From an uncultured Chloroflexia bacterium (GTDB lineage: Bacteria; Chloroflexota; Chloroflexia; Thermomicrobiales; UBA6265), in NCBI GenBank assembly GCA_963724285.1, contig CAVRUD010000016.1:21676-85675 (forward strand): a DNA stretch of 64,000 bases. Reading direction: 5' to 3'. Shown here in pieces: positions 1-52,767 of the stretch (position 1 is the stretch's first letter; every line of letters starts with the position of its first letter). Both the position numbers and the translations under genes were made by a program. The notes under the pieces are model-generated. The model was given only the letters and a program-made list of their open reading frames with translations, was not told where the DNA came from and did not search any database.

Positions 1-302
1 GCAACGGCCTGAGCAGCCTGCACCTGCCGGTGCCAGACTTTCATGCGCCCAGCCCCGACCAACTGCGCGAGGCGCTGACCTTTATCGACCGGCACCGGTC
101 GGAGGGTCTCGGCGTGGCGGTCCACTGCCGGGCGGGGATGGGCCGGACCGGCACCGTGCTGGCCGCCTACCTGATCCGCGGCGGCGCGACCCCCGACGAC
201 GCTATCCGGGCCGTCCGCGAGGTCTGCCCCCACGCGGTCGAGAGCAAACCCCAGGTCGAGGCGCTCAAGGAGTTTGCGCGGCGGAGGGATTGGTTGGTGT
301 AG
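1..302 (+). CDS. dual-specificity/tyrosine protein phosphatase, 5' end outside window
   Basis: Frame is open back to base 3. Active-site P-loop HCRAGMGRTG (CX5R). Confidence 0.8.
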   Translation, partial: NGLSSLHLPVPDFHAPSPDQLREALTFIDRHRSEGLGVAVHCRAGMGRTGTVLAAYLIRGGATPDDAIRAVREVCPHAVESKPQVEALKEFARRRDWLV

Positions 303-354
303 CCGAACCTGAGAGGTTCCTTCAATGCCGCCGGTCGGTCGTGGACCCCAGGTT

Positions 355-453
355 GATGAAGGTTGCGGAGTTGATTGCGGGTTGTTTGGAGCGACGCCAT
401 CTCCCGTCCCAGCACCGTCCCCAAAAATCGATGATCTATTCCGCAACCTCCAT
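355..453. mobile_element. 97-99 bp TIR (MITE-like) element, copy 1, inverted relative to copy 2
   Basis: Ends ATGAAGGTTGCGGAG...TTCCGCAACCTCCAT. The core reverse-complements onto the core of the copy at 7215-7309. Confidence 0.65.
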
Positions 454-620
454 AAACCTGGCGCCGAACCGACGAAGTCCCTCCGAGACTGGTCCCGAGG
501 GGCAATCTCAGTCGGTTTTGGAAGTCGCTTTGTAGTGGGATGAAGGGGGCGTAGAGTGGCCGATTCGGTAGAATGCGCGCTCGGCTTTGTCCCAGCGGTG
601 GCGGCGATGAGGGTGTCGAT

Positions 621-818
621 TTAGAGCACGTCGTTGATGGCGCTCTTGTGGTCGCGGAACGCCGGAAAGCTCAAAAAGTACTCGATCATTTCCCCGTAGA
701 TGATGCAGCTGGTCGCTGCCTCGTCGCGGTCAATCCAGGGCGAGAGCAAGCGTACGGCATCCGGGCGTCCCCGAAGATACGCAGCAAGCGGAGTCGTGTC
801 GAAGAGATAGCGCCTGAT
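621..818 (-). pseudogene. PIN-domain (VapC-like) N-terminal fragment
   Basis: Translation IRRYLFDTTPLAAYLRGRPDAVRLLSPWIDRDEAATSCIIYGEMIEY... is only about 65 aa. An in-frame TGA lies directly upstream and the ATG is displaced by 1 nt. Confidence 0.4.
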
Positions 819-1086
819 TCATCGTCGTCCCAGGCAAACTCGATGGGGGGTCGGGGTGCGCTCATATCGGATGCGATCCAGGGCATCCAGCCTCTCGTCG
901 CAGTCGATGTCGCCCCACGCGCCGGCCGCCGCTTTCGCCCGCTCGATGTCCTCGCGGGTCACGGAGGCGTCCGCGTCCTCCTCGGTGTAGCAGGGGCGCC
1001 AGCGGGCGGGGTCGCCGCGGTCCGGGATGGAGATGATCGGCTCGTCGTCGAGGGCGGAGACCTCCGGATCGTCGGCGGAGGGCCAT
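819..1086 (-). pseudogene. VapB-like antitoxin remnant, at least 2 frameshifts
   Basis: ...TREDIERAKAAAGAWGDIDCDERLDALDRIRYE then the frame changes at a G6/C6 run (845-850) to ...PPIEFAWDDDE. The ATG at 1084-1086 is out of frame by 1. Confidence 0.3.
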
Positions 1087-1193
1087 GGCGGTGCTCTTAA
1101 CCGGGATGGGCTATGACGACGAGGATACAACGGATGCAGGATGATCGTGTTGGATTGCGTCTAACCGCTCCATAGCCCTAACTTCGTCAGTGG

Positions 1194-2083
1194 CTAAATG
1201 GTCCATCCGGCAAGTCCGGAGTAGCATGGGGCGCGATGAGCGGCGGCCCCCGGGCACCCCCCGCCGACGGCGCGCTGTGACCGAGGCGGCGGCGGCCGGG
1301 CGCCGCGCGCCGGCCCACGTCCTCCAGACCGAGGCCCGCCGTCGCGCGCCCGCCCGGATCGGCTGGCTGGCCCACCAGGGGCGGCGCGCGCCCCAGATCT
1401 CCGCCGCGCGCGGCGGCGGGCCGGCCACCGCCCGGACCCGGGTCACCCGCTTCCCCGCCGCCGGCCGGGCCCTGGACCGGCGGGCGGCGCGCCGCCATGA
1501 GGGGCATAGGGCAGCGCGATCACGCGCGGCCGCCGCGGCGAGATCCTGGCCGCCGAGGGCGTGCGCTGGCGCCGGCAGGGGGACCGGCTCGGCGAGCGGG
1601 CCGTTCCCCGCCCCCGTCCGCACCAGGGGGCGATCGTCGCCCTCGTCGAGGCGCCGCCTGCGGGCTGCGTCGTGATCGGCTGCGCCGCGCCGGGGTCGGC
1701 GGCGGCCACGCGCCTCCCCGGAGCGCGGGCGCGCCGCCCCGACCCGGCCGGGCCCGGCGGGGGAGGGCCACCCAGGCGGCCGCCGACGGCCGCCGGGGCG
1801 AGGGCGCCGTCTTCGCCGCCCGCTCGCCCAGCGGGCGGGGAGGCCCCGACGGCGGCCGTCGACTGGGCGGCTGCGCGCCACGTGGGGCGCCCCACCGGGG
1901 CGGGGCGGGGCCTGGGACGACGGGGCGGCCGCGCGGGGCGACGCGGTCCTCGCCGACCTCCGCGCCCCCCGAGCGCTGGGCGCGCTGCGCGGGGCGCTCG
2001 GGCACCCGCGCCGGGCGTCCGTCGTCCCGCCGGCGTCGTCCGCCCGCCGATGGCCGCATAGACTTGCCGGATGGACCACTTAG
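1194..2083. mobile_element. IR-bounded hyper-GC cassette of unknown nature
   Basis: 23-bp inverted repeats at 1194-1216 and 2061-2083 (1 mismatch). TGG lies on both outer flanks. The interior is about 85% GC and open in all six frames. Confidence 0.4.
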
Positions 2084-2235
2084 TGGACCGTCAACCGTCA
2101 TTTGCCGTTGGGCGCGCCGTTGACGGGGCATCCACGTGCGGCGCCCTGGTCCCAACCGGGACCGTCCCGGCGGGCAAGCCGGGCAGGGCAAGCCCTGCCC
2201 CTACCGGGTGGCGAATCATGCGTGACGGTCCACTA
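2081..2235. repeat. 155-bp unit bounded by a perfect 13-bp IR, containing a GTAG-headed hairpin (2181-2204, minus strand)
   Basis: TAGTGGACCGTCA at 2081-2093 and TGACGGTCCACTA at 2223-2235. Internal GGGCAGGGCAAGCCCTGCCCCTAC. Confidence 0.55.
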
Positions 2236-3306
2236 GGGGGCTTTATTCGGCAACTCGAACCACCCCGCCCCCCCATGCCAGTGCCTTCCCGCCTTGATGT
2301 GGGCGATGACGGCACGTTCCAGGGTGGTGGTCTGGGGATAGGCGTCCAGTGGGAGATCGCTTCGGCCGAAGACGAAGCGCAGGATGGACGCGTCGTTCTC
2401 GTCGAAGCGATAGGCGATCTGGAAACGGTCGATGAACCGGATGATGTTCGAGGTGGTGGGCAGGTACTCGCGCAAGTCGTCGTCCAACATCCACGAGTAG
2501 CAGACCGCGTAGATGAAACGCTCCTCCGGGAAGTACCTGGGAAAGAACTCCATCGCCTGGGCAAACGCGGCGTCGCACGCTGCCGGTTCCATTGGTCCGG
2601 AGAAGCCCGGGATGTGGACCGAGAGGACGTGGTCTTCTGGGCTTGCATCGACGCCGGCAGCCCTCATTCCTGTGCTCGTGGTGTTGCCCAGGCGGCCGCG
2701 CTCAAATTGCAAGCGGCCCAGCTCGAAGAGGGCGCCACGGAGGTGCCGCTCCAGCCACCAGGGATCGGCAACGGCCAGGCTGTCCACCTGACGCCGCCCG
2801 TGTCGCAGGCTGCGGCCGAGGTCGGAAAAGGTCGCCCGGGACACCTCCGCCGGGATACCACGCTCGGCGTGGAACCGGCGCGAAAACGGAAGGGTAGCGA
2901 GGAAAACCCAGGCGTAAAACGCCCTCCCCACCAAGGCCGCCCTGCCCGGCGACACCGGCCAGCGCGGCATCATGGGCCAATTGCTCACCTCGCCCATCCC
3001 GGACACGATCAACCACGCACTGCGTTCCACCAGTTGCCAGAGTTCCGGCGAGCCCTCCAGCACCGCCAACGAGTCGATCAGCTCTGCCGCGTCCTCATCC
3101 GTCACGCCCAACTCGCGCAGGAGTTCGGGAAGTTCCGACCGGGTCGGGAGCACGAATTCGACCGGCGGATCGCCCCCTGCATCGAGCGAATCGAGCCAGG
3201 TCGAGGTCTCCTCCGTCGCGCGCAGGGTGTCAAATACGGCAGCCAGATCGATGTCGCCACCATTGTGGCGGTCCTTGGCCCGGAAATTACTCACCGACGG
3301 CGCCAT
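2233..3306 (-). CDS. acyltransferase-like protein (NAT_N / GNAT_C-type architecture)
   Basis: Motif block SVHIPGFSGPMEPAACDAAFAQAMEFFPRYFPE...CYSWMLDDDL...SNIIRF. Start chosen at MAPSVSNF; the ORF extends to 3375. Confidence 0.6.
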   Translation of the reverse strand: MAPSVSNFRAKDRHNGGDIDLAAVFDTLRATEETSTWLDSLDAGGDPPVEFVLPTRSELPELLRELGVTDEDAAELIDSLAVLEGSPELWQLVERSAWLIVSGMGEVSNWPMMPRWPVSPGRAALVGRAFYAWVFLATLPFSRRFHAERGIPAEVSRATFSDLGRSLRHGRRQVDSLAVADPWWLERHLRGALFELGRLQFERGRLGNTTSTGMRAAGVDASPEDHVLSVHIPGFSGPMEPAACDAAFAQAMEFFPRYFPEERFIYAVCYSWMLDDDLREYLPTTSNIIRFIDRFQIAYRFDENDASILRFVFGRSDLPLDAYPQTTTLERAVIAHIKAGRHWHGGAGWFELPNKAP

Positions 3307-3802
3307 CGATGCCCTCGCGGATGAAATCGGCGTGGCCGTTGTGCCGGGCCAGTTCTTCCAGCATGTGAAAGGCAATCCATCGCAGCGTCAACCCTGCCTG
3401 ACCCGGACCGGCGCCCTTGGCCAGATCGTCCAGGTCGGCCGCGTTCAGGATGGCGCGCGCCTGCGTCGCTTCGGCGTCGGAGAAGGCGAGCACGTCGGCG
3501 GTGGTCTCCTCCGGCTCGATCCGCCAGTACCGGTTGGGATCGTCCGGATCCCAGAAGTGGGCCAGATCCTCGCCCATGAAGCACTCGCGCCACCAGGAGC
3601 GCTCGACGTCGGCGATGTGCTTGGTCAGACCGAGCAGACTCATCCCGGACGGCTGATGCGGCTGGCGCAATTGCTCGTCGGTCAGGCCCGCCAACTTGCA
3701 GCGCAGGGTCGCGCGGTGCCAATCGAGGAACGCCGCCAGCATCTCCTTTTCGGTGCCGGCCTCGGGCGGATCGATCCGGCTGCAATTCTCCAGCATTGCC
3801 AT
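3287..3802 (-). CDS. DinB family protein (DUF664-like)
   Basis: 171-aa ORF with LAAFLDWHRATL...HIADVERSWW...LEELARHNGHADFIRE. Confidence 0.85.
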   Translation of the reverse strand: MAMLENCSRIDPPEAGTEKEMLAAFLDWHRATLRCKLAGLTDEQLRQPHQPSGMSLLGLTKHIADVERSWWRECFMGEDLAHFWDPDDPNRYWRIEPEETTADVLAFSDAEATQARAILNAADLDDLAKGAGPGQAGLTLRWIAFHMLEELARHNGHADFIREGIDGAVGE

Positions 3803-3914
3803 CGTGGATCCGTCTCCTTGTCGTTGATCGCGGGCATCGTACGCGCCGGGCCAGTCGCGGCCACATGATGCGGGCTGCGGCTCCAGCCGTGCGAGTGCGC
3901 CGGGCAGGATCGGC

Positions 3915-5183
3915 TCAGGCTGGTGCGACTCCGGGGTCGGGCATGGTGTCCGGCACCTCCTTCAGCGCTCGGACTGGCGAAAGGTACAGGATCGCGAAGC
4001 CGATCTGGAGCCCGACGGCGCCGACAATGAGCGTCGGGCGCAGACCGATCAGGTCGCCCAGGAATCCACCGGCCAGAGCGCCAACCGGCGCGAGGCCGAG
4101 GGTCACGACGCGCATCGTGCCGTTGACCCTGCCCAGCAGGCGGTCCGGGGTGATGGCCTGGCGGAGGCTGATCTGGTTGATTGCCGTCACCGGCCCGCCG
4201 AGCGTCGCGACGATCCGGGCAACCGTCAGCATGGCGACGGCGACGACGACCGGGCCGGTCACGAGCGGCACGAGCAGAAACGCCGCATCGTTGACGAAGG
4301 CGCCCCAGACGATCGCCGGGCCGATCCCGATCCTGTCGGCCACCCAGCGGGCCGCGAGGGCTGCCACGGGGAGCCCCAATGCGCCGACGCCAAAGATGAT
4401 CCCCAGCGCCGCCGGGGGGACATCGAGTTCCCGCGTCACGAACAGCAGGTAGACCGCGCTGAACATCCCGGCGAACAGGTTGTAGACGCCGAGCGAGCTT
4501 CCCATTGTCCTGAGCAGGGGGGACAGCGCGATGACGCCGATCCCTTCCCGCACATCGGCGAGGAGGCTGCGCCGGGGTCCGGAACGCTCGGGTCGCGTCT
4601 CGACCGTGCGGATACGCCCAAGGGCAAACGCGGAGAGGACGAAGGAGACGGCGTCGATCAGGATCGCGATCGGGGCGGTAAAGACCTGCACGATCAGGCC
4701 GGCGAGGCCCGGACCCAGGATCATGGCGCCGGATCGGCTGAACTCCAGCTTGCTGTTGCCCTCGACGAGTTGCTCACGACGCACGATCGAGGGGAGGAAG
4801 GAGGCATGGGCAACGTCGAAGAAGGTGGTCAGCACCCCGGAGAGGAAGGCGACGAGGCAGAGGTACCAGACCGACAGCCAATCGAGCAGGTAGACGGCCG
4901 GGACCGAGCCGAGAATGGCGGCCCGGCCGAAATCGGCGGCGATCAGGATCGGACGGCGCCGGGTCCGGTCTATCAGGACGCCCGCGAAGAGGCCGACCGC
5001 CAGGGCGGGCACGGTCCCGGCGGCGGCAAGGAGGCCCATCTGGACGCCGGAGGCATCGAGCGTCACCACCGCGGTCAGCGGCAGGGCGAGGAGCGTGACC
5101 TCGGAACCGAAGAACGAGAGCGTCTGGCCCGTCCAAAACCGGCGGAAATCGGGATGCCGCCGGAGGCTCTCGTTCGGGGTCGA
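3915..5183 (-). CDS. MFS transporter
   Basis: 12-TM-like hydrophobic pattern. N-terminus RRHPDFRRFWTGQTLSFFGSEVTLLALPL. GTG start inferred; the ORF extends to 5270. Confidence 0.85.
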   Translation of the reverse strand, partial: STPNESLRRHPDFRRFWTGQTLSFFGSEVTLLALPLTAVVTLDASGVQMGLLAAAGTVPALAVGLFAGVLIDRTRRRPILIAADFGRAAILGSVPAVYLLDWLSVWYLCLVAFLSGVLTTFFDVAHASFLPSIVRREQLVEGNSKLEFSRSGAMILGPGLAGLIVQVFTAPIAILIDAVSFVLSAFALGRIRTVETRPERSGPRRSLLADVREGIGVIALSPLLRTMGSSLGVYNLFAGMFSAVYLLFVTRELDVPPAALGIIFGVGALGLPVAALAARWVADRIGIGPAIVWGAFVNDAAFLLVPLVTGPVVVAVAMLTVARIVATLGGPVTAINQISLRQAITPDRLLGRVNGTMRVVTLGLAPVGALAGGFLGDLIGLRPTLIVGAVGLQIGFAILYLSPVRALKEVPDTMPDPGVAPA

Positions 5184-5379
5184 CACGCGCGTCCCTCCCG
5201 GGAATGGACCGGGGTACGCTCTGCCCACACATCGCCCCGCCCATTCGTGATTGATTTCACAATACCACAATGACAGATTGCCTCGTCCCCAAGCGGACCA
5301 AGCCGCCGGTGAGGATCGGCCGCCCGAACGACGTTGTGCGGGCGTATCTGAGCCTGTCCTCGATTGAAGGGATTGCCCG

Positions 5380-5784
5380 TTATCGTGGGGGCGCAGGTAC
5401 CTCCGGCAGGAGCGCCAGGAACGACGTCACGCGGATCCGGTCCAGGACCCAGCGCACCGGCGCTGGCAGGGTTGGGGCGGCTTCCGCCGGGCCGATCAGC
5501 CGGGGCGCGGTCAGTGAGACGCGACGACCCGCCCGTTCCAGCTCGCAGCTCTCCGCGGCCAGGACATTCTTGACCCACTGCGCGTCCGGGCCGTAGGTGA
5601 GGGCCACCACGTAGCCGCCGGTGGCGCGGTTGGGGAAGGCCATGATCGGCGTGCGGTAGACCGTGCCGGAGCGTCGCCCCTGGTGGCGGACGATCGCAAA
5701 CGGCGGAATGCGCCCGGCGACCGTCCGGGCGATCGGGTTGGTGACGTGGCGGTTGAAGCGTGCCAGGCGCTGCGGGAGTGGCAT
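5380..5784 (-). CDS. deazaflavin(F420)-dependent nitroreductase family protein (DDN/PNPOx-like)
   Basis: FNRHVTNPIARTVAGRIPPFAIVRHQGRRSGTVYRTPIMAF. The start overlaps the stop of the upstream MFS gene (ATCA/ATGA junction at 5782-5786). Confidence 0.8.
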   Translation of the reverse strand: MPLPQRLARFNRHVTNPIARTVAGRIPPFAIVRHQGRRSGTVYRTPIMAFPNRATGGYVVALTYGPDAQWVKNVLAAESCELERAGRRVSLTAPRLIGPAEAAPTLPAPVRWVLDRIRVTSFLALLPEVPAPPR

Positions 5785-7026
5785 CAGGCAGGGACCTCCA
5801 GTCCGGACAGGCTCGGTTCTTCGGTTCGTTCGAACCCGATGACGCGGTCGACCACGATGAAGGCTATCAGGGTCAGGATGAGCAAGGCGGCCGCGCCGCG
5901 GAAGAGCCCGACCGTGCCGATGGAATCGAGGAGGAGGCCGCCCAGGAGCGACCCGGTGATGCTGCCGAACCCGAACGACATCGCCGCCAGCAGGGCCTGG
6001 GCGGTGGCCGCCTGTTCCCGGCCCGCCAGGCGGTACGCCAGGGTCACCGAGGCGATCAAGAAGGCGCCGTAGGACAGGCCGTGGAGGAGCTGGACCGGCA
6101 GGATCCACTTCGGGTCGGTGATCAGGGCGAAGGCGAGAAAGCGGAAGGCGTAGACCGCGATCGCCAGGGCGATCATCCGGACCGGGCCAAACTTGACGAT
6201 GAACCAGCCGCCAAAGGCGACGATCGGCAGTTCGCTGGTCGAGGACAGCGCCGCCGCGAATCCGATGAGGCTGGCGGAACCACCCAACTCCTCGATGTGG
6301 ATCCCGAGGAAGCCGTACATCGTCGCCACGCTGACGGACATGCAGTAGGTGATCGCCAGCAGCGCCATCAGGGGCCGGTTAGCGGTGGCCGATCCCAGGC
6401 CGCCGAGGACAGTCCGGGCGGTGCGCTCGCCCAGGGCAGGCAACCCGAGGGTCGAGAGCACCCCGAACCCCAGGCAAACGACGTGGGCAAAGAAGATGAG
6501 CCGGGTGACATCGTCGCCCATCAGCCAGCCGACCAGCAGCACGCTGGCCGTATACCCGATCGATCCCCAGACCCGCAGGCGCCCGTATGAGGTGCCCAAC
6601 CGGTCACTGACCGTGACGCCGTACGCGTCGAACGTCGGAGCAATCGGAGCCTCGAGAAAGGCCAGCATCGCGATGAGCGGCAAGAGCAGCAGGAACGTCT
6701 CGGGCAGGCTGGCTGCCAAGCAGACGACCGCGGCGCCACCCAACCCCACCCGGAGTACGAACCGGTGCTTCGAGCGGGAATCGGAAAATGCCCCCCAGAT
6801 TGGCCCGGAGAGGGCGACCCCCAGGGCGGGGAGCGCGGACCAGCACCCCGATCTGCCAGCCGCTGAACCCGAGATCCCGGTAATAGAGCGCGGTAAAGGG
6901 GAGAAAGGCGCCGGTTCCCCCAAAAATCCAGAAATACCCGGAACTGACCCAGCGCCCCGCCCGGCGCCAATCGGCCGCGCTCGCCTCGTCCGCCACGGCC
7001 GTCTCATCGTCCGCCAGACCTGCCAC
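5784..7026 (-). CDS. MFS transporter (MFS_1_like type), frameshifted near 6840
   Basis: N-terminus YFWIFGGTGAFLPFTALYYRDLGFSGWQIGVL lies in one frame and the rest, ALPALGVALSGPIWGAFSDSR..., in another. Confidence 0.75.
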
Positions 7027-51740: not shown

Positions 51741-52597
51741 TTATTCGTCGCGCGATGCCGCCGGACTCGGTTCCGCCCAGGAGTGTTTCCGCAGCGGTAG
51801 GATGGGTTGGATCTTGCCCCCGGCCGTCCGCTCGATGGGTTCGATGACGACGTCGACCGTAACCTCGTCGCCGAATCGTGCCGCAAACTTCCCCACGATG
51901 CGCACCCGCATCGTCTGGCGGTCGCCCTGCTGATCGGCCACGACTGCCACGCGGAAGTGGGACTCCGTTCGCTGGTCGACCTGACACTGCCAGATCTGCT
52001 CCTCGTCCGTGAAGCGTGTGCGGATCGCCTGCGGATGAACGATCCGCCCGGAGGGGAGTTCGATCGGGTCGGCGCTCCGCCCCAGCGGGTAGGAGAGGAG
52101 CGGCAACGACCGGCCGCGGGCGCACGGATCGAGGAGGAGGCAGGCGACGTCGCCGAGGCGGTAGTTGAGCAAGATCGTGGCGCGGTTGACGAGGTTGGAG
52201 ACGACCACGCCGCCGCGTTCACCCGGGCCTTAAAGTGCTGTGCGAACAGGTTGCCGCTGCCTGGACGGGACCGTCGCGGCGCTGTCAGGGCGTCGAGCTG
52301 GCGGGCGCAGCACCGACCGACGGTGGCAAGGGCCTGTGCCTGGGCCCGGATGTTGGCATTGCGCTGCACCTGCGCGGGCAGGCGGGGGCAGCGGCGGCGC
52401 CCTTCGCTGGCGACGCGGCCGAGCAGGCCCAGCGGCGCCAACGTCAGGCCCGCGCCCAGGGTCAGGGCCGGCTGCTGGCCGCCGGTGCGCACGACCGGCG
52501 GCAACGGGGCGGCCCGGACCGTGTCGCTCATGCCGTAGGCCGCGACCACGGCGGTCTCCGGGATGGGCCCCGGGCCGGGCCCCGGGCGGTCAAGCAC
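51741..52597 (-). pseudogene. phenylacetate-CoA ligase family (F390 synthetase-like) 5'-truncated and frameshifted remnant
   Basis: GERGGVVVSNLVNRATILLNYRLGD... in one frame (to about 52229). The upstream part AAYGMSDTV... is in another frame. About 285 aa remain against the roughly 430 expected. Confidence 0.5.
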
Positions 52598-52767
52598 CCC
52601 GCCCGTACCGCCCCGGAGCCGCCGACGTCCACATCCATGCCTGCCAGGCGTTTGGGCTCCGGGCCGACCCTCATACCCCCTGAAGGGGGTTGGAACGCCG
52701 GGGCGGTGTCCGGATCGCTCCGCCTCCGGCGCGCCTTTTCCAGCCGGTTTCAGCCGGGTTTGTGGAT

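Follow-up and report, generated by a model that had tools for sequence, protein, structure and literature searches.

A defective IS630-family element with a one-sided A/T to G/C divergence in a Chloroflexia contig

Insertion sequences (IS) of the IS630 family with a length of about 1198 bp and the ends AGTGGTCCATCCGGCAAGTC are the closest described counterparts of a defective element, here named E1, that occupies positions 1197-2080 of a 64,000-nucleotide stretch from an uncultured Chloroflexia bacterium (contig CAVRUD010000016.1, GenBank assembly GCA_963724285.1; the whole stretch is referred to as the window). Both possess terminal inverted repeats, TA flanks in a CTAG-like target, a helix-turn-helix (HTH) domain followed by a DDE domain, and a stop codon abutting the right repeat. 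E1 differs from these relatives in its length (884 instead of 1198 bp), its destroyed transposase, its GC content of 0.84 (relatives 0.65-0.75) and the loss of an A6G5 run. Non-autonomous deletion derivatives and miniature inverted-repeat transposable elements (MITEs) resemble E1 in their intact ends, internal deletions and lack of a working transposase, as well as in the presence of a small related neighbour, here the element E2. MITEs, however, are defined by many similar copies, whereas E1 is seen once in the 64-kb window and, with 884 bp, is longer than a typical MITE.

A different set of parallels concerns base composition. In eukaryotes, GC hot spots such as the 'runaway GC' region of gerbils (PMC7403616) and fast-evolving regions of the human genome (PMC3278478, PMC2631073) have been ascribed to biased conversion. 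These hot spots share with E1 a local excess of A/T to G/C changes of both types, i.e. transitions and transversions, few reverse changes and a sharp GC peak, and they are likewise indifferent to codon position and protein function; unlike E1, they are tied to meiotic recombination. The pattern in E1 is in line with the hypothesis of biased gene conversion in bacteria (PMC4450053), where only weak genome-wide correlations have been reported. The reading developed below, a dead IS630 element whose GC shift came from a GC-ward fixation bias, is given a probability of about 0.5 as a whole.

IS630-family identity of the cassette

The region was first described from its letters as a hyper-GC cassette bounded by a 23-nt inverted repeat, CTAAATGGTCCATCCGGCAAGTC, and this description holds. 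Positions 1194-1216 pair with 2061-2083 at 22 of 23 positions, and the pair has no further copy in the 64-kb window, where the chance expectation is 0 matches. The interior (1217-2060, 844 bp) has a GC content of 85.2%, compared with 67.8% for the window and 77.5% for the GC-richest 844-bp stretch elsewhere in it. All six frames of the interior are nearly free of stop codons (1, 1, 4, 1, 1 and 0 per frame), as had been noted, and seven open reading frames (ORFs) of 106-322 aa overlap the cassette region. Any significance attached to these frames is not borne out: shuffled versions of the interior contain equal numbers of stops (8.5 +/- 3.0, against 8 in the cassette) and a stop-free frame occurs in 79% of them, so that the open frames are uninformative. 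The long open frames and their Arg/Ala/Pro/Gly-rich translations would be by-products of base composition alone.

The earlier view of the unit as a transposon bounded by terminal inverted repeats proved right, while its statement that the content matches no family, neither DDE transposases nor any known IS, was mistaken. We consider it very nearly certain that 1197-2080 is a dead, non-coding IS630-family copy of the ~1198-bp type seen at the metagenomic loci L133, L132 and L137. The 18-nt core of the left repeat, TGGTCCATCCGGCAAGTC, also ends IS630 elements in Chloroflexota metagenome-assembled genomes (MAGs) and soil metagenomes: element ends with this core come from about nine MAGs of Chloroflexota and a single one of a planctomycete, in every case with TTAG or TAAG before the core. 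The core is also present in at least 120 contigs from metagenomes, the majority of them soil ones. Where coding sequence adjoins this core, it encodes an IS630-type transposase (motifs DNLSTHR and LIEPWW) with the stop codon abutting the repeat. Databases contain 895 homologs of the core-linked transposase, with HTH and DDE_3 (PF13358) domains, and a relative on a plasmid carries the annotation 'IS630 family transposase'.

Pfam yielded no match for the seven ORFs of the cassette, a search that had been proposed together with the first description, and Rfam gave nothing relevant for window positions 1-6000. A protein profile built from 57 full-length transposase homologs, in contrast, matches the cassette with hmmsearch on the + strand only, colinearly and in three frames, and matches no frame of the - strand. 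Profile positions 5-103 correspond to ~1268-1555, 126-203 to ~1510-1743, 208-233 to ~1752-1829 and 235-304 to ~1835-2044; the bit scores of the colinear matches are 37.9, 15, 8 and 4.7, the first belonging to profile positions 126-203 and the second to 5-103. Among all ORFs of the window, the cassette is the sole source of profile matches (E 2e-11). A DNA profile from 16 metagenomic relatives (nhmmer) matches the + strand at 1470-2027 (E 1.3e-33), 1197-1464 (E 1.4e-11) and 2023-2080 (E 1.7e-8). The closest DNA relatives from metagenome loci are elements of ~1198 bp (L133, L132, L137, L084, L042 and others) with 58-72% overall identity. Aligned to them with MAFFT and to L133 by global pairwise alignment, E1 comprises 884 bp with 83.9% GC and is colinear with the family over its whole length. 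The homology ends at the repeats, as is expected of an IS; homologs of one frame extending across the repeats, named beforehand as a sign of an ordinary gene, were not seen.

The best-preserved frame of the cassette had no match at E <= 1e-3 among 5.8 billion proteins. The same frame gave four weak matches among 1.84 billion representatives, namely two ordinary IS630-like fragments, one unrelated repeat protein and one protein of 6734 aa; none of the three characterised ones is hyper-GC. One frame is stop-free across the whole cassette, and a real Arg/Ala/Pro/Gly-rich protein gene, e.g. the 322-aa ORF at 1111-2079(-), accompanied by a chance inverted repeat, might be supposed. Such a gene is hardly credible: most shuffles produce a frame of this kind, the GC content of the three codon positions (0.83/0.83/0.90) lacks a coding pattern and is unlike that of real genes, Pfam is silent and the + strand frame is without a homolog among the 5.8 billion proteins. 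Moreover, the homology lies on the opposite strand, where it crosses three frames, and the repeat is a family-wide transposon end.

The left terminal inverted repeat of E1, AATGGTCCATCCGGCAAGTC, was located by repeat search at 1197-1216 (+) and the right one, the reverse complement of AGTGGTCCATCCGGCAAGTC, by repeat search and alignment at 2061-2080 (-). These 20-nt ends are one position off the ends of L133, L084, L042 and others. Between them, a relic of the N-terminal HTH region (orfA) extends from 1268 to 1466 (+); it is supported by the match to profile positions 5-103 and is 76-77% identical in DNA to L133 and L132. It is followed at 1466/1467 by the junction of a first deletion of 123 nt, equivalent to L133 positions 273-395 in the alignment; its placement is uncertain by ~30 nt owing to short repeats. 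Positions 1467-2022 (+) align in three frames with the linker and with the DDE domain up to two thirds of its length. This relic carries small indels at about 1501, 1598, 1749, 1824 and 1864, at least five in total, and both catalytic Asp residues have become Ala (LDEMGP to CAAPGS, DNLSTHR to ADLRAPR). At 2022/2023 a second deletion, of 193 nt and equivalent to L133 positions 948-1140, has removed the LNLIEPWW motif together with the segment expected to carry the family's catalytic Glu; the gap in a blastn alignment to L010 agrees with it. The last transposase codons (2023-2060, +) end in the stop TAG at 2059-2061, which abuts the repeat, a layout also present in L018, L010 and L133, and the last 62 nt are 87% identical to L010.

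The putative slippery site A6G5 that joins orfA and orfB in relatives is replaced in E1 by CACCAGGGGG. L133, L137, L084, L042 and L132 carry this run, GAAAAAAGGGGG, at ~560 between the HTH and DDE frames, where it looks like a site of programmed frameshifting or transcriptional slippage; relatives of the L012 type and many database proteins are single ORFs. The intact DDE triad and the single or frameshift-joined ORF of an autonomous IS630 member are absent in E1. Judged from its sequence, E1 would be unable to move by itself and is a relic, not an active IS.

One-sided divergence of the interior and its possible sources

For each aligned site, a base present in 75% or more of the 16 relatives was taken as ancestral, and the relatives themselves, left out one at a time, served as controls. 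In the cassette, 89 of 179 ancestral A/T sites (50%) have changed to G/C, 38 by transition and 51 by transversion, compared with 2-8% in the relatives. Changes from A/T to T/A number five (0-5 sites in each relative), a rate of ~3% versus ~0.4%. G/C to A/T changes affect 16 of 420 sites (3.8%; relatives 2-9%) and G/C to C/G changes 21 of 420 (5.0%; relatives 2-6%). The A/T to G/C class is thus the only one that is inflated, about tenfold, and 96% of the family-conserved G/C sites are still G or C. At conserved residues, an independent, protein-guided count gave this bias too, for codon positions 1-2. Interior A/T sites that are invariant in all relatives have become G/C in 59 of 93 cases (63%; control relatives 3-5%), which rules out that the G/C alleles were borrowed from known variants of the family.

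Apart from this single class, the cassette appears in sequence to be an ordinary member of the L133/L132 clade: at the G/C positions of L133 it is 82% identical to L133, compared with 81.5% for the sister L132b. Three relatives from other contigs with equally weak profile scores, in contrast, have all classes raised (G/C to A/T 14-19%, G/C to C/G 12-20%) and an ordinary GC content of 0.69-0.74. Over 32 family members the GC content is 0.699 +/- 0.024 with a maximum of 0.75, versus 0.83-0.855 in the cassette. The one-sided replacement of A/T by G/C is unusual.

An assembly or sequencing artefact, or a chimera, might come to mind, as extreme compositions are sometimes artefactual. We give this next to no credence: over 884 bp the cassette follows a real family colinearly, its ends and target TA are intact, and the family-conserved G/C sites are retained as stated above. 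No error in sequencing or assembly that is known to us would change A/T to G/C only, at half of the sites, and stop exactly at the repeats.

The boundaries of the shift are sharp. Conserved A/T sites have changed at 0 of 16 positions in the terminal repeats and at 87 of 156 in the interior (Fisher p = 6e-6); such conservation of the ends while the interior changes is typical of non-autonomous elements. The 60 nt to the left of the cassette have ~50% GC, E2 has ~70%, and nearby non-coding and relic DNA 57-73%. In the adjacent genes for DinB/MST and a GNAT_C acyltransferase (2233-3802), changes on the window branch, polarised with three relatives, run from G/C to A/T at 54 of 737 sites and from A/T to G/C at 8 of 342. 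The spectrum of these neighbouring genes rules out a host-wide GC drift on this lineage. Because repeats, flanks and adjacent genes are unaffected, the shift is not a present local or host-wide regime; it stops at the functional ends of the element. The DinB/MST and GNAT_C genes have a GC content about 2 points lower than that of their relatives, the opposite of the adjoining cassette.

These boundaries bear directly on an alternative reading, in-situ decay of a pseudogene under the host regime, according to which any unconstrained DNA at this place drifts to ~85% GC. The composition of the interior (0.852) does equal that of the four-fold degenerate sites of the host genes in the window (0.861), which speaks for this alternative. 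It is nevertheless quite unlikely, since none of the 16 conserved A/T sites in the terminal repeats was lost, the left flank, E2 and the neighbouring non-coding or relic DNA stayed at the values given above, the window contains no other hyper-GC region and the GC content of the adjacent host genes is falling on this lineage. At four-fold sites of orfA in the functional relatives L133, L137 and L084 the GC content is 0.90-0.97.

We favour, at the probability given at the outset, a fixation bias toward GC. The transposase gene would first have lost its coding constraint, after which a strong fixation bias toward GC, through GC-biased conversion or repair or through selection, would act on every interior position as if it were a synonymous site. 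The interior would consequently move toward the composition that its functional relatives have at four-fold sites only. The ends would be retained, as only copies with intact ends could be mobilised in trans by a full-length partner. Since neither the flanks nor E2 are GC-enriched, the shift would predate this insertion or would have arisen by an exchange limited to copies of the element. Biased gene conversion is one candidate, because a multi-copy cut-and-paste element may be converted or repaired from homologous copies far more often than single-copy DNA, and copy-to-copy exchange would be confined to the element.

Fixation bias fits the counts because transitions and transversions toward G/C are both enriched, A/T to T/A changes rose modestly, and G/C to A/T changes, usually the commonest mutations in bacteria, show no excess; the pattern holds regardless of function. 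By our own rough estimate, the counts would be obtained with a scaled bias of ~4-5 if the neutral divergence is 0.1-0.2 per site. A more specific proposition, that the element itself drove the shift, either by runaway GC-biased conversion, through very frequent templated repair or conversion between the copies of a cut-and-paste transposon, or by a dedicated A/T to G/C hypermutation of transposon DNA, is tentative and, in our opinion, would rather be wrong than right.

Several points weigh against fixation bias. E1 is a single copy, with neither a second copy nor a full-length partner in the 64-kb window, and no other hyper-GC member was found among the 146 fetched loci or among the matches listed in the protein searches. 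The ancestral states derive from a consensus of metagenomic relatives whose overall identity is only 58-72%. At many of the changed sites all known relatives are invariant, which makes the G/C alleles new mutations, and one sequence cannot separate fixation bias from a mutation process specific for A/T to G/C. Biased gene conversion in bacteria is itself debated (PMC4450053, PMC6867656), and strong biased gene conversion in this lineage would be hypothetical.

The main competitor, which we regard as doubtful and less probable than fixation bias, is an element-specific hypermutation in which G/C was misincorporated opposite A/T in one or a few episodes while selection kept the ends. Error-prone gap repair after cut-and-paste excision, a nucleotide pool rich in dGTP/dCTP or 8-oxo-dGTP, or an anti-transposon mutator are examples of possible sources. 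The limitation of the excess to a single substitution class and to the interior of the element would be accounted for, and so would the level of the other classes, which equals that of the relatives, so that little time need have passed. A:T to C:G transversions (51) exceed transitions (38), and an excess of such transversions is the MutT/8-oxo-dGTP signature. Internal deletions, furthermore, would be expected from abortive gap repair of Tc1/IS630-type elements, a link that we infer.

Against hypermutation stands the absence of any strand-coordinated or clustered pattern. The changes are spread along the whole interior and symmetric between strands (A to C 27, T to G 24, A to G 14, T to C 24), with 41 of 85 A sites and 48 of 94 T sites of the + strand changed, and they affect codon positions 1 (33 of 57) and 2 (52 of 97) alike. 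Runs tests for clustering by strand or by substitution type gave values at expectation, which rules out strand-coordinated or clustered hypermutation. The sequence context of the changes reveals no clear preference beyond a weak effect of GAT (11 kept versus 5 changed); protection of GATC (Dam) sites was considered, but with 4 of 7 ancestral GATC kept it is too weak to build on. Copying of a neighbouring base, as in slippage, was rejected (35 and 22 of 87 changes, against an expected fraction of 0.43). The absence of an excess of G/C to A/T changes in spite of the rise of A/T to T/A from ~0.4% to ~3% is more like filtering by fixation bias. Keyword searches of the literature found no such process in bacteria, nor do we know of a bacterial A/T to G/C hypermutation of this kind.

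Known systems of targeted hypermutation also differ from E1. Deaminase hypermutation (repeat-induced point mutation (RIP) in fungi, APOBEC on retroelements, ADAR) produces transitions only, toward A/T or, on one strand, from A to G, in set contexts and in strand-coordinated runs. Like the process in E1, it is one-directional, confined to a mobile element and destructive to its gene; in E1, however, the changes lead toward G/C, transversions outnumber transitions (51 versus 38), both strands are affected equally and clustering is absent. A RIP-, APOBEC- or ADAR-like process was rejected, as its defining features are missing. The target of a diversity-generating retroelement was likewise rejected: it would change the adenines of one strand, whereas A and T sites of the + strand have changed here at the similar rates given above.

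Target site, E2 and flanking sequence

At the ends of E1 the window reads GGC-TA/AATGG...CCACT/TA-G (slashes mark the element ends), with the left copy of the duplicated target TA at 1195-1196 in the context GGC-TA and a second TA, common to E1 and E2, at 2081-2082. The same flanks, C-TA/AGTGG...CCACT/TA-G at both ends, occur in 4 of 11 distinct full-length relatives, and L137, L084 and L042 share the C-TA...TA-G of E1. The remaining relatives fit a TWA reading, so that the exact cut positions are provisional. On the alignment evidence, E1 proper would be the TA-flanked sequence 1197-2080, and the 23-nt repeat as originally drawn would take in part of the palindromic CTAG-type target, namely its C/G and the TA that was duplicated.

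The TGG at 1191-1193 and 2084-2086 had been taken for a 3-bp target duplication. This is refuted, as the right TGG is part of the terminal repeat of E2 (TA/GTGGACC) and the flanks of the element are TA, which IS630/Tc1-mariner elements typically duplicate, often within CTAG or NTAN. No duplication outside C-TA...TA-G was found in relatives of the cassette, and the TGG pair is a coincidence.

The inverted-repeat-bounded unit reported on the right side of the cassette is confirmed. It is E2 (2083-2233), a MITE-like element of 151 bp whose ends, GTGGACCGTCA and TGACGGTCCAC, were found by repeat search and are related to those of E1. E2 folds as a long hairpin (z = -5.2), and no other copy was found in the window or the 146 fetched loci. 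A third TA follows at 2234-2235 and forms, together with C2233, the stop codon (TAG, - strand) of the GNAT_C gene at 2233-3375(-). Two elements and three TAs would imply one original site of CTAG type, ...GTCAGTGGC-TA-GGGGGC..., and the empty site should read GTCAGTGGCTAGGGGGCTTTATTCGG or GTCAGTGGCTAAGGGGGCTTTATTCGG.

Synteny with the nearest available relatives of the neighbouring genes (L024-L026, ~80% DNA identity; the best relative of the neighbouring gene is 82% identical) ends exactly at the target TA. This TA is that of the acyltransferase stop codon, which is TAA in these relatives, of which L025 and L026 are the closest, and TAG here; the comparison indicates that the stop codon was the insertion site and nevertheless persisted. 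Tandem junctions of the type CCACTTAGTGG, as between E1 and E2, are also present between head-to-tail IS630 elements in L132 (1170/1176) and L051 (521/527), and these shared junctions suggest repeated insertion into a TA made by an earlier insertion.

Other derivatives of the family occur elsewhere. L034 (3-96) contains a MITE of ~100 bp composed of two right ends of the IS family of E1, and right-end fragments of ~120 bp are found alone at many other loci (L047, L080, L103, L131, L136 and others).

On the left side of the cassette, the proposed decayed vapBC could not be confirmed. The region 621-1133(-) comprises an open frame of 104 codons (822-1133, -), an in-frame stop and then a PIN-like start (IRRYLFDTTPLAAYLRG...). 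The PIN likeness is by eye, short and frameshifted relative to the ATG, and Pfam has no match for either part. The start of the window (30-302) lies inside a gene with a dual-specificity/tyrosine phosphatase domain (PF22785, PF00782). DinB-GNAT relatives have TetR and MMPL genes downstream, and the window has a different left-hand region instead. The second GC-richest spot of the window, ~350 bp with 0.79-0.82 GC at 52300-52650, is surrounded by overlapping ORFs that show no clear coding pattern, and it is unrelated to the IS630 profile.

Architecture and meaning

The architecture of the locus is ordinary, with a TA-flanked, dead IS630 element and the MITE-like E2 beside it. Its composition is what sets it apart. 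Keyword searches of open-access text, weak evidence in themselves, returned no ~0.8-kb runaway-GC island in a bacterial transposon. If the shift is indeed tied to the element, it would be, to our knowledge, the first description of a local 'runaway GC' island from a prokaryote, and it would provide direct evidence of a GC-ward force on non-coding bacterial DNA.

Hyper-GC regions also have a practical consequence, as they give rise to long spurious ORFs in every frame, here of up to 322 aa, that can enter databases as 'hypothetical proteins'. Bacterial genomes are richer in GC than their mutation bias predicts, and selection, biased gene conversion and mutation have been put forward as candidates (PMC4450053, PMC6867656). 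The interior of a dead transposon is about the least constrained DNA of a bacterium, and that of E1 reached the GC content of synonymous sites while its neighbours did not. Should the pattern recur in dead IS copies of GC-rich genomes, such copies would be a simple genomic reporter of the direction and strength of this force.

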